64,000 nucleotides of DNA from Vulcanimicrobiota bacterium (GCA_963723515.1 CAVRQT010000002.1:448001-512000), one strand, 5' to 3'. Positions 27,123 through 60,909 are shown, counted from the stretch's first letter. Notes: generated from the letters alone by a model not told the origin. Numbers and translations: made by a program.

Positions 27123-28318
27123 ACGAATTCCGAACCGTCGTCGCCGCGGAGATCATGCGCCGGATCCGCTCCCGCGCCTTCAAGGTAGGGCTTGTGCTCG
27201 GCATCGTCGCGGTCGCGCTCGCGATCAAAGCGCCCCAACTCGTGGGCGACGCGATGAACCGCGCCAGCCGCTCGATCGTCGTGGCCGGAGATCCATCGAT
27301 CGTCGATCGGGCCGCCAAATTGCTTTCCAAAGATTTCGCGATTGAAGGCGTCACCAATGTTACGGGATCGCAGAGCGCTCGGATGCTGGATGCGCACCGC
27401 AATGCGGGCGCGCTGGTGGTCGTTGCGCGTAGCGGACGGGGCGTGAGCGTCTCGGTGTACGCGCGGGACTTGAGCTTCGTCAAGACAGCCACGATCAGAG
27501 AGGACTTGATGCCGCTCAACTTGGCGCTGGCGACGTCCGCTTCGCAAACTGCCATCGACCGCTACATGAACGTGCCGATCACGCTCCACAGCATCAACTC
27601 GAAGTTCGCGAGCTCCGGCGCCGCCGATGCCGCAAAAGCGCTCGCTTATGGCCTGCTCTTCTTCCTTTATGTATCGATCTTACTCAACAGCCAGTTGATC
27701 ATGACGTCCGTCGCTGAAGAGAAGACAAGCCGCATCGCGGAGCTGCTGGTGGCATCCGTTCATCCCTCCGCGCTATTGGCGGGAAAGATTGCGGCGGCTG
27801 CTGTCTTGGCGGTCATTCAAATGGCCTCGTGGCTTGTCGTCGCATACCTCGTCAGCGGTATCGGGGGCGACGGCTCCGGATTTGCGTCGATCCTGCGAGT
27901 CGTGACGCCACTTGAAGCACTCGCATTTGCGGTGTACTTCATCCTTGGCTATTTGCAACTCTCGACGCTCTTTGCGGCAGCCGCTTCACTCGTCAATCGC
28001 ACCGAAGACTTGGGCAGTCTTTCCGGACCGCTCGTCATGCCGGTCGTTTTCGCGTTGTTCGTCGCCATCTATGCGTTAGGGTTTCCAAACGCACCGCTGG
28101 TCACAGTTACAAGCTTCATTCCGATCGTCGCGCCCTTTACGATGTTTGCCCGGATCGGCGTAAGTAACGTGCCCGCGTGGCAAATCGCGCTTTCTGTCGC
28201 AATCAATATTGCCGCCGTCTGGGCGTTCGCTGTTCTCGCCGGAAGAGTGTACCGCGTCGGCATGCTGCTCTATGGCCGGCCGCCCAAGTTATCGCAACTC
28301 TGGGCGACGCTGAGATGA
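27119..28318 (+). CDS. ABC-2 type transporter permease (NatB/YhaP-like)
   Basis: EEKTSRIAELL motif, multiple TMs and ATGA overlap with the ATPase. Confidence 0.88.
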   Translation: MNEFRTVVAAEIMRRIRSRAFKVGLVLGIVAVALAIKAPQLVGDAMNRASRSIVVAGDPSIVDRAAKLLSKDFAIEGVTNVTGSQSARMLDAHRNAGALVVVARSGRGVSVSVYARDLSFVKTATIREDLMPLNLALATSASQTAIDRYMNVPITLHSINSKFASSGAADAAKALAYGLLFFLYVSILLNSQLIMTSVAEEKTSRIAELLVASVHPSALLAGKIAAAAVLAVIQMASWLVVAYLVSGIGGDGSGFASILRVVTPLEALAFAVYFILGYLQLSTLFAAAASLVNRTEDLGSLSGPLVMPVVFALFVAIYALGFPNAPLVTVTSFIPIVAPFTMFARIGVSNVPAWQIALSVAINIAAVWAFAVLAGRVYRVGMLLYGRPPKLSQLWATLR

Positions 28319-28352
28319 GCCGCAAGTAATATAAAGGCGACGCTACAATACC

Positions 28353-28462
28353 TGTCACGCTGAGTTTATCGAAGCGCCACGATTACGGTTGCCCTCGATC
28401 CTTCGACACTTCGATAAGCTCAGTGCAGGCTGCCGCTCAGGACAACTGAGCTCAGCGTGACA
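28353..28462. repeat. REP-type palindromic element cluster with nested units
   Basis: Perfect 12-bp terminal inverted repeat TGTCACGCTGAG / CTCAGCGTGACA enclosing CTTCGA...GCTCAG units. Related copies at 31118 and 57352. Confidence 0.75.
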
Positions 28463-28468
28463 CAGATG

Positions 28469-28489
28469 AAGCGCAGCGACCGCTGCCTT
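28469..28489 (-). promoter_or_regulatory. Candidate bacterial SECIS hairpin
   Basis: Minus-strand AAG-GCAGC-GGUC-GCUGC-G-CUU begins 11 nt after the in-frame UGA, with GU in the apical loop. Confidence 0.6.
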
Positions 28490-28749
28490 TAGTGGACCGT
28501 TCAGCCTTGTGGCGGATTCCCCCAACCCGATTGAATGTACTTGCCGTCGACGACGATCGCCGGCACCGTCGGGTCGTCGCCGGTATATGAAAACATCTTT
28601 CGGCGCTCAGCCGGATCGTTCTGCGCATCGTGCACGACGTATCGTGTGCCCGCTGCATCGTAGTGTGCCATCGCGGCTTTACAATATGGACAAGCCGGAC
28701 TGATGTAGAGCTCTAGGGTGCTTCCGGCGGGAATCCGTTCAACGTCCAT
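28489..28749 (-). CDS. Glutaredoxin-like protein (CPYC), probable C-terminal selenocysteine (UXX-star-like); ends at 28501 if TGA is a true stop
   Basis: CPYC active site, TVP cis-Pro motif, then GWGNPPQG-TGA-ACG-GTC-CAC-TAA with a SECIS-like hairpin. Confidence 0.8.
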
Positions 28750-28763
28750 TGGTAATACCGATC

Positions 28764-29597
28764 ATGCCGCTCACCTTCGTACCCACTCCGCTTGGGAATC
28801 TACGCGACATCACGCTGCGGGCACTTGACACCTTGCGCGATTGCGACCTGCTCGTCGCCGAAGATACCCGCGTGGCGCGCAGGCTCCTTTCCGCTTTGAA
28901 GCTGCCCGCGAAGCCGCTGCGCAGCTATCGCGAACAGAACGCCGCGAGGGTGACGGAGAAGATCATCGACGCCGCGCACACGCAGCACGTTGCGGTCGTC
29001 TCAGACGCCGGAATGCCGGCAATTTCGGATCCCGGGGCCGCGTTGATCGCCGCTGCGCGTCGCGACGGAATCGCGATCGAGGTGTTGCCCGGGCCGAGCG
29101 CGGTGCTCAGCGCCGCCGTGCTGAGCGGTTTCGATGTGCGCGAGTTTGCATTCAGCGGATTTCTCCCACGCAAGAGCGGCGCTCGCCGAGCGGCCTTCGA
29201 GGCGCTTGCAAAAAACGGCGGTGTTACGACGGTGTGGTTTGAATCACCGCAACGAATCCGCGCAGCGCTGCGCGATCTTGATGCAGTCGATCCGAAACGG
29301 CGGTGCTTCGTTTTGCGCGAATACACGAAGATGCACGAACAGCAAATCGCCGGCACTTCGAGCGAGGTAGCCACGGCGCTTCCGGAACCCGTGCGTGGCG
29401 AGATTGCCCTCGTCGTTGAAGGCGGCGCAGCGAAGCAACCGCCCCCGATGGACTTCGAGCGCGCCGCGGATGCGCTTTTTGCGAAACGTGCGAGCGTCGC
29501 GGCGATTGCAAAGGCGTTGGCGCAGCGCGGATATGGCCCGCGGAGCGAAGTCTATAACCGCCTTCTGCAACGCAAAGAACGCGAGAGACAAAGGTGA
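28764..29597 (+). CDS. rsmI: 16S rRNA (cytidine1402-2'-O)-methyltransferase
   Basis: PTPLGNLRDITLRA, AEDTR, SDAGMPAISDPG and RE.TK.HE. Confidence 0.93.
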   Translation: MPLTFVPTPLGNLRDITLRALDTLRDCDLLVAEDTRVARRLLSALKLPAKPLRSYREQNAARVTEKIIDAAHTQHVAVVSDAGMPAISDPGAALIAAARRDGIAIEVLPGPSAVLSAAVLSGFDVREFAFSGFLPRKSGARRAAFEALAKNGGVTTVWFESPQRIRAALRDLDAVDPKRRCFVLREYTKMHEQQIAGTSSEVATALPEPVRGEIALVVEGGAAKQPPPMDFERAADALFAKRASVAAIAKALAQRGYGPRSEVYNRLLQRKERERQR

Positions 29598-60066: not shown

Positions 60067-60909
60067 ATGCCTGAATCGTCGATTCGCGGGGGTGCGGACG
60101 CCGTGCAGATTACCAGCTTCAGCGACGGCCGCGCGGAGCCGCGTTTCGACGAAGTCGCCAAAGAGGAGCCGCTCCAGATTCGTGTGGCAGCGGCCGGGAC
60201 GACCCATGACGTTGCGGTGACGATGCGCACGCCGGGAAACGATTTTGAATTGGCGGCCGGCTTCTTATTTAGCGAAGGACTGATCCGCTCGCGCGGTGAT
60301 ATCGTTTCGCTCTCCTACTGCCTTGACGACACGATTGATATTGAGCAGCGCTACAACATCGTTACCGTTGAACTGCACCGCGACGCCGCTTTCGACCTCA
60401 AGCGTCTGGAGCGGCACTTTGCGATCGGAAGCTCGTGCGGCATTTGCGGGAAGGCGCAACTCGAGAGTCTGCAGATGCGTGTGGAGCGTATCGACAGTGC
60501 TGCGACCGTTGCCGCCGATACGCTGATCGCCTTACCCGAACGACTGCAAGAAGAGCAGCGCGTTTTCGCATTCACCGGCGGGCTGCACGCAAGTGCGCTG
60601 TTCGATATGTCCGGCAAAATACAAGCGGTTCGGGAAGACGTCGGACGCCACAACGCGATAGACAAGCTCGCCGGTTGGGGGCTTTTAAACGATCGGCTAC
60701 CGTACAACGATCGCATCTTACTTGTCAGTGGTCGCTTGAGCTTCGAGATCGTGCAGAAAGCGGCGGTGGCTTCGATTCCGATCGTCTGTGCCGTTTCGGC
60801 GCCGAGCAGCCTCGCAATTGAGGCCGCTCAGGCGTTCAACGTGACGCTGGTCGGATTCTTACGTGGCCGGCGATTTAACGTTTACTGCGGCGCGGAGCGC
60901 ATCGTTTAA
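60067..60909 (+). CDS. fdhD: Formate dehydrogenase accessory sulfurtransferase
   Basis: TMRTPGND, SSCGICGK, TGGLH, EDVGRHNAIDK and SAPSSLA. Confidence 0.93.
   Translation: MPESSIRGGADAVQITSFSDGRAEPRFDEVAKEEPLQIRVAAAGTTHDVAVTMRTPGNDFELAAGFLFSEGLIRSRGDIVSLSYCLDDTIDIEQRYNIVTVELHRDAAFDLKRLERHFAIGSSCGICGKAQLESLQMRVERIDSAATVAADTLIALPERLQEEQRVFAFTGGLHASALFDMSGKIQAVREDVGRHNAIDKLAGWGLLNDRLPYNDRILLVSGRLSFEIVQKAAVASIPIVCAVSAPSSLAIEAAQAFNVTLVGFLRGRRFNVYCGAERIV

Follow-up and report, generated by a model that had tools for sequence, protein, structure and literature searches.

A glutaredoxin-like gene with an in-frame TGA

A small glutaredoxin-like gene lies on the minus strand of the window, by which is meant the whole stretch of 64,000 nucleotides that was analysed. 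Translation of the minus strand confirmed that its open reading frame ends at GGC-TGA and that only ACG GTC CAC separates this TGA from a TAA, as the first-pass annotation had reported. The features of the locus are as follows.

28749, minus strand: ATG, start of the glutaredoxin-like open reading frame
28504..28749, minus strand: 82 sense codons of the glutaredoxin-like gene, ATG to GGC (open reading frame list and translation; Pfam PF00462; AlphaFold2 model)
28506-28504, minus strand: last sense codon GGC, Gly82 (translation)
28501..28503, minus strand: in-frame TGA, read as probable selenocysteine, residue 83 (conservation in relatives; Cys aligned in paralogues)
28492..28500, minus strand: tail codons ACG GTC CAC, Thr-Val-His (conserved tail; third-position variation)
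28489..28491, minus strand: TAA, the probable true stop (in-frame stop here in 93/93 orthologues; codon periodicity ends after it)
28469..28489, minus strand: SECIS-like hairpin AAGGCAGC-GGTC-GCTGC-G-CTT (fold, conservation and covariation)
28486-28482 with 28477-28473, minus strand: core stem of the hairpin, GCAGC/GCUGC (fold)
28481-28478, minus strand: hairpin loop GGUC (GGTC in 88/93 orthologues)

With the TGA read as selenocysteine (Sec, U), translation gives a protein of 86 aa with the C-terminus ...SGWGNPPQG-U-TVH. The CPYC centre occupies residues 20-23, and the nine residues that precede the TGA read SGWGNPPQG. The redoxin matches the Pfam Glutaredoxin family (PF00462) with 48 bits. 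A second stop at most four codons after the first is common by chance.

The redoxin gene is monocistronic, convergent with an ABC-2 permease gene and head-to-head with rsmI-metG, the start codons of the redoxin (28749) and rsmI (28764) being 14 nt apart. The redoxin and rsmI coding regions overlap on opposite strands in many relatives, and starts so placed imply that each promoter lies inside the other gene, or that the mRNAs are leaderless. Within the 1.5 kb flanks that were inspected, rsmI is a neighbour in 83/93 orthologous loci and metG in 71/93. This neighbourhood is housekeeping and gives no clue to function. Elsewhere in the window, the fdhD gene that had been taken as compatible with a Sec-using organism is present at approximately 60148-60903.

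Conservation of the TGA, the tail and the downstream hairpin

The relatives of the redoxin belong to Candidatus Eremiobacterota (Vulcanimicrobiota, WPS-2), mostly to the Baltobacteraceae. An orthologue (53-99% identity) was found in 12/41 related genomes, with the in-frame TGA in 12/12. Across the phylum, 229/401 genomes match the redoxin at E <= 1e-10, and the best 150 places listed each carry one TGA; a match at the orthologue level (E <= 1e-37) was counted by hand in approximately 179 of the 401 sampled Eremiobacterota genomes. The 120 loci of the orthologue pool used below yield 93 distinct sequences. The 12 and the 93 include the unpublished genome G022 (L028, L072), and the phylum and selA tallies include the unpublished genomes G020, G022, G036, G226, G246, G257, G272, G333, G346, G360, G371 and G392; every conclusion holds without these genomes.

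A TGA follows SGWGxPPxG in all 93 distinct orthologues and is never replaced by TAA or TAG among them, and no orthologue (at least 53% identity) was seen with Cys at the Sec83 site. The tail after the TGA occurs in 24 nucleotide versions, which read TVH (75 sequences), TIH (14), TVY (2) or TV (2), with three residues after the Sec position in 91/93 and two in 2/93. The next codon is always a stop (TGA in 48, TAA in 24, TAG in 21). Counted from the T of the TGA, positions +3, +4, +7 and +10 are invariant in the 91 sequences whose tail has three codons, and the third positions of the tail codons vary (+5, +8 and +11, with entropies of 1.06, 1.62 and 0.80); first positions change at +6 (G/A, giving Val/Ile) and +9 (C/T, giving His/Tyr). 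The true stop in these 91 reads T-[G/A]-[A/G], and all later positions vary freely. Such periodicity, running through the TGA to the second stop, marks a peptide that is translated up to this stop. By comparison, then, the UGA at 28503-28501 is shown to behave as a sense codon, with Thr-Val-His translated and the gene ending at the TAA.

One orthologue, L033 (G023), has CPYS in place of CPYC together with a TVY tail, and keeps the TGA and the hairpin. This would fit Cys20 and Sec83 as the essential pair.

The hairpin starts with the last A of the TAA stop. Its base lies 11 nt after the UGA and the G-U of its loop 21-22 nt past the A of the UGA, in agreement with the distances first reported, and the outer pairs AAG/CUU are formed across a bulged G. 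Folded alone it has a minimum free energy of -12.2 kcal/mol (z = 0.12), and 103/200 shuffles fold equally well or better. A single hairpin of this kind is unremarkable in DNA of 60% G+C, and the case therefore rests on comparison with relatives. An Rfam scan of 28300-28800 with E values up to 10 returned no SECIS family and one chance miRNA match, and a pattern scan at the locus returned 0 promoters and 0 terminators.

In 88/93 orthologues, the distance from the T of the TGA to the start of GGTC is 19-26 nt (mode 21), and stem positions 1-6 flanking GGTC are paired in 78-85 of the 88. Uninterrupted pairs in the stem usually number 6-8, against 5 in the hairpin of the window. The 12 orthologues that are without GGTC, or have fewer than 4 uninterrupted pairs, all fold a hairpin at the same place (12/12), with G-U-containing loops (GGUCC, GGUCU, CGUGA, AGUU and similar).

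Covariation was examined in 68 distinct 22-nt hairpins preselected for at least 4 pairs, so that the inner pairs of this alignment are paired by construction. All 68 share the GGUC loop and the C-G pair that closes it, and 6/7 pairs show changes on both sides. In this alignment 91.8% of cells are paired; sliding the partner by 1-3 columns lowers this to 24-47%. Compensatory double changes occupy 91 cells against 20.8 in shuffles (0/500 shuffles as high), a control that overstates the signal because the hairpin sequences share kinship. The variety of the aligned stems (CAGC/GCUG, UUCC/GGAA, GCCC/GGGC, UUUU/AAAA and others) indicates that the compensation is real.

The hairpin of fdhF in Escherichia coli is a SelB-binding SECIS, and a matching geometry had been claimed for the hairpin of the window. 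Set against fdhF, the claim holds for the loop and its distance from the UGA: both apical loops are GGUC, with the G-U approximately 21-23 nt past the UGA and approximately 11 nt from the UGA to the minimal stem. The two differ in that the fdhF element lies wholly within coding sequence and has a bulged U in its upper stem, whereas the stem of the redoxin family is a plain G+C-rich helix of 5-8 bp whose start lies at the true stop or beyond it. Related redoxin clades have CGUG[C/U/A] loops, unlike the GGUC of fdhF.

A genome-wide regular-expression search of the source genome (TGA, then a GGTC tetraloop 16-28 nt on with a stem of at least 5 pairs) returned 25 TGA-hairpin pairs. Five have an upstream open frame of at least 40 codons, one of them the redoxin gene itself; the other four were dropped as selenoprotein candidates by eye, their translations being Arg-rich and apparently in the wrong frame.

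The arrangement extends to two other clades. A sister-family subfamily of the same class has VGFGGG-TGA-[T/S/V/A]-[V/I]-H(-D/E)-stop in 8/8 loci (L038-L049, genomes G030-G040), followed by hairpins with CGUG[U/C/A] loops and covarying stems. A soil-metagenome clade, reached via a representative from a search of 1.84 billion proteins, comprises 447 relatives, of which 80 were kept (L164-L243). The TGA with a short tail is found in 80/80 of these, and SGWGxPPRG-TGA-T[VI]HD-stop in 77/80 (tails TVHD in 72, TIHD in 5). A hairpin is present in 67/68 distinct downstream stretches of this clade, with a CGUG[C/U/A] loop in 54.

Distant paralogues (25-32% identity) end in ...GRGC-[Y/I]-[V/I/A]-x-x. Cys is aligned with Sec83 in 8/9 of them, the ninth having Arg, and 7/9 have C-x-x-T instead of C-x-x-C; one of the nine, L047, is from the unpublished genome G036. 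The homologues thus bear out the expectation of the first-pass annotation that this position would hold TGA or Cys, with TGA and a short conserved tail in 93/93 orthologues and Cys at the site in the paralogues just described. L051 (G015) was rejected as a TGA-bearing orthologue, as its TGA is a stop before the start codon and the gene is a Cys-type paralogue.

A HypF-like gene for [NiFe]-hydrogenase maturation, with an acylphosphatase-type VSGVVQGVGFRPF motif at its start, immediately follows the Cys-type paralogues L037 (G020) and L051 (G015). L037 is fused in frame with this gene, an observation whose sole basis is the unpublished genome G020. The adjacency and fusion hint at a possible role of the Cys-paralogue branch in hydrogenase maturation.

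Selenocysteine machinery and competing readings

The source genome (2.11 Mb in 4 contigs, with 88% marker completeness) contains selA (506.6 bits), an adjoining selB (244.4 bits against a cut-off of 242.25), selD (357.9 bits) and tRNA-Sec (69.4 bits). All four exceed their cut-offs, and a search for the Sec machinery, proposed as a check on the first-pass annotation, is to that extent positive, but selB and selD are frame-broken in the assembly. selD has an in-frame site of its own, SCAG-TGA-ASK, followed by the hairpin GGCGCAA-GUC-UUGCGCC with a G-U-containing loop. A formate-dehydrogenase-like gene (fdhA-like; G000:C3:1001942-1004760, L161) carries the Sec site ARI-TGA-HSS, with the hairpin GUCCCCA-GUU-UGGGGAC approximately 15 nt after the UGA.

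selA is found in 337/401 genomes of the phylum and, in a hand tally that may be off by one or two, in 174 of the approximately 179 orthologue-bearing genomes; in the other five, MAGs of 200-690 contigs each, it was not found. In one genus selA is found in 0/11 genomes and the orthologue likewise in 0/11. As selA is so common in the phylum, its co-occurrence with the orthologue adds weak support.

The breaks in selB and selD raise the question of whether this strain still inserts Sec. As assembled, selB (G000:C2:432826-434673, L001) has an internal TAG and, relative to the intact gene of a genome of the same genus (G001, 320.8 bits), two insertions, of +2 and +1 nt, approximately 120 nt apart. 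Between these insertions the G domain is out of frame for approximately 40 codons, and its motif DVPGHERF is read in another frame. selD (G000:C2:780199-781126; L011, L013) changes frame near codon 280, placing the C-terminal ...QTSGGLL... in another frame; in five relatives it is intact to position 309-310, one of the five being without the TGA. Such breaks, if real, would mean that no Sec is inserted in this strain, that the TGA acts as a stop and that only the 82-residue CPYC glutaredoxin is made by what would still be a member of a selenoprotein family, so that the family-level conclusion would be unaffected. Decay of the machinery would agree with the unbroken frames of rpoB and rpoC in the same genome (7.7 kb together) and with the short stem of the hairpin in the window. 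Against this, the TGA, tail, stop and hairpin of the redoxin are all intact in this genome, and the TGA is kept in selD and the fdhA-like gene too. The selB indels, moreover, sum to 3 nt and restore the frame, as a consensus error would look, and a 4-contig assembly with 88% marker completeness fits indel noise. The frame-restoring pair and the low completeness suggest consensus errors, and the selB break may be either such an error or a pseudogene; loss of Sec insertion in this strain is considered quite unlikely. A scan for GC3 frame switches, tried as a gauge of indel noise in the assembly, missed the known selB and selD breaks, and its 44 candidates are meaningless.

Public records imply another reading, with the TGA as an ordinary stop, a plain 82-residue glutaredoxin, and a hairpin that is a transcription terminator or some other 3' element. 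A word-index search found 187 homologues, and all 120 listed end in ...SGWGxxxxG, none with Sec, those that are named being called glutaredoxin, glutaredoxin 3, glutaredoxin domain-containing, GST N-terminal domain-containing or hypothetical protein. These records end at the Gly before the TGA, as was predicted from the shortening of the product by standard ORF calling. The hairpin does lie just past the open reading frame, the usual place of a terminator, with an unremarkable folding energy. However, no terminator-like site was found at the locus, and no T run follows the stems in the orthologues examined. Nor does a terminator explain why exactly three codons past the TGA vary mostly at third positions, why every orthologue has a second stop in frame, why a GGUC loop stands at a near-fixed distance from the TGA, or why the TGA is never TAA or TAG. 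This reading therefore appears highly improbable.

That the TGA specifies one of the standard amino acids (Trp, Cys or Gly), by a variant code or near-cognate suppression, has next to no probability: TGA ends the neighbouring ABC permease gene and is the true stop four codons on in 48/93 orthologues, a dedicated Sec system and SECIS-type hairpin are present, and the one record translated in this way (P0127 of a soil-clade relative, ...RG-W-TVHD-W-RAVARR...) has W at the terminal TGA as well as at the first and runs the frame past the true stop, which marks it as a gene-caller code artefact.

Decoding as Sec remains the preferred interpretation. The locus is very probably a gene for an 86-residue glutaredoxin-fold selenoprotein, the product of which is cut at residue 82 by ordinary gene callers and in which the UGA would specify Sec via a hairpin SECIS. 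The recoded redoxin of 86 aa first proposed, with a CPYC centre, a C-terminal Sec and a UXXX-stop ending, is thus supported by the TGA, tail and stop of all 93 orthologues and by the hairpin.

By the established bacterial mechanism, the SECIS would be the hairpin whose first base is the final A of the TAA and whose GGUC loop lies approximately 21 nt past the UGA; SelB with Sec-tRNA(Sec) would bind to it while the UGA sits in the ribosomal A site. Nearly the whole element would lie in the 3' untranslated region. Lying so near the next stop codon, it would also be unable to recode that codon, and this may be why many orthologues can use a second UGA, only 12 nt on, as the true stop. Without selenium or SelB, translation would be expected to end at the first UGA and yield the 82-residue CPYC glutaredoxin.

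In 48/93 orthologues, the first UGA would be Sec and the UGA 12 nt on a stop, with only the distance to the hairpin to tell them apart.

Relationship to Uxx-star proteins and likely chemistry

The best NCBIfam model for the redoxin is NF041212 (Uxx-star family glutaredoxin-like (seleno)protein, E = 2.5e-15), followed by glutaredoxin 3 (9.1e-10), and 12/12 orthologues match NF041212 (best E 3e-16). Assignment to the UXX-star families, suggested in the first-pass annotation, is upheld in so far as NF041212 is the best model, but the score of 56.5 bits with the tail (55.6 without) does not reach the curated cut-off of 66, and the alignment covers profile positions 2-66 of 70 only. Much of the lost score can be attributed to an x-Pro-Pro-x insertion before the Gly-Sec. 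Against the same model, the VGFGGG-U-xIH subfamily scores 89-93.5 bits over the whole profile, which ends at U-x-x with one His beyond; the soil clade scores 69.8-72.9 bits, above the cut-off, and one Cys paralogue 71.4 bits. The sub-families of NF041212 are UXX-star 1, 2 and 3 (NF041114, NF041211 and NF047338, respectively). In its accessible text, a recent review lists the UXX-star families and describes family 1 as UxxT with two Sec (PMC13188914, citing Haft & Tolstoy 2025), and the accessible text of the GOS paper gives UxxC as the only Grx-like family (PMC2398784).

The small glutaredoxin fold and the N-terminal C/U-x-x-C/T motif of the Uxx-star proteins are both found in the redoxin, with C20 invariant in 108 alignment rows. 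Further likenesses are a Sec or Cys that follows a Gly-rich segment and lies a few residues from the C-terminus, a SECIS hairpin essentially past the stop, and routine shortening by gene callers. The tail differs: it has three residues after the Sec (T-V/I-H), and four in the soil clade (TVHD), whereas the family name, from which the two-residue definition is taken, implies two. The redoxin family is further set apart by the x-Pro-Pro-x insertion, by a nearly invariant His at +3, and by the lack of any Cys-for-Sec orthologue among those seen. The sub-threshold score and the U-X-X-X-stop ending together place the redoxin in a divergent branch rather than among the textbook members. The redoxin is of the same superfamily and design as the Uxx-star proteins, and on sequence grounds forms a putative new subfamily of a known kind of selenoprotein.

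An AlphaFold2 model, built from an alignment of 108 rows in which Cys stands for Sec, predicts a glutaredoxin fold (mean pLDDT 96.9, pTM 0.88), in which the tail residues (pLDDT approximately 97) form short strands. The top Foldseek matches are glutaredoxins and small NrdH-like redoxins (4mje, 3zit, 7c10 and 4tr0; TM 0.62-0.69). In glutaredoxins, the part of the chain that follows the last strand adjoins the active site. The match to PDB 7c10, the dithiol form of the Clostridium oremlandii Sec-glutaredoxin cGrx1, has a TM of 0.66 over 66 columns and an rmsd of 1.8. cGrx1 and other UxxC redoxins share with the redoxin a glutaredoxin fold and a probable nature as thiol-disulfide selenoproteins, but their Sec replaces the first Cys of CxxC, whereas here the CPYC is all-Cys and the Sec would lie in the C-terminal tail. 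A likeness can also be drawn to the Gly-Cys-Sec-Gly tail of animal thioredoxin reductase, in which a near-terminal Sec after Gly on a flexible tail exchanges electrons with a Cys centre. The reductase differs in its unrelated fold and size, its eukaryotic SECIS and its Cys-Sec dyad; the redoxin shows no sign of a reductase partner.

Sec83 would be carried on the Gly/Pro-rich tail that follows the final strand, where it may pair with the nucleophilic Cys20 of CPYC by a selenenylsulfide, the arrangement implied for Uxx-star proteins, or possibly act as a ligand with the invariant tail His. The C-x-x-T motif with a C-terminal Cys in the paralogues, and the UxxT motif with two Sec that the review, in its accessible text, gives for UXX-star family 1 (PMC13188914), suggest by analogy that the C-terminal Sec83 is the redox partner of the N-terminal nucleophile.

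A bolder and more doubtful proposal, which we consider rather unlikely, is that the branch ending in U-T-[V/I]-H(-D) is functionally distinct. The tail His, together with Sec83 and Cys20 (and Cys23), might then form a metal or metalloid site or a His-activated selenenylsulfide relay that is absent from the two-residue Uxx-star tails. The protein might in addition serve as a selenium-sensing switch, with selenium supply deciding between a dithiol glutaredoxin of 82 residues and a selenoenzyme of 86, and be a core housekeeping redoxin of the Eremiobacterota and of a large soil clade (with rsmI-metG head-to-head in 83/93 loci).

The value of the finding is mainly as a correction of annotation, since this kind of selenoprotein is already catalogued and no new mechanism is involved. 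A branch of small redoxins is stored publicly as plain 'glutaredoxin', four residues short and without its probable catalytic selenocysteine. The Eremiobacterota branch is missed by the current cut-off of NF041212, and a lower cut-off or a sub-model would mend its annotation. No paper on selenoproteins of Eremiobacterota was found in a literature search or, in a wider search, among the matches listed. The redoxin would add a Sec-using protein to this phylum, and about half of its orthologues (48/93) would offer a natural illustration of the position-dependent meaning of UGA, which would be read as Sec and then, 12 nt later, as stop.
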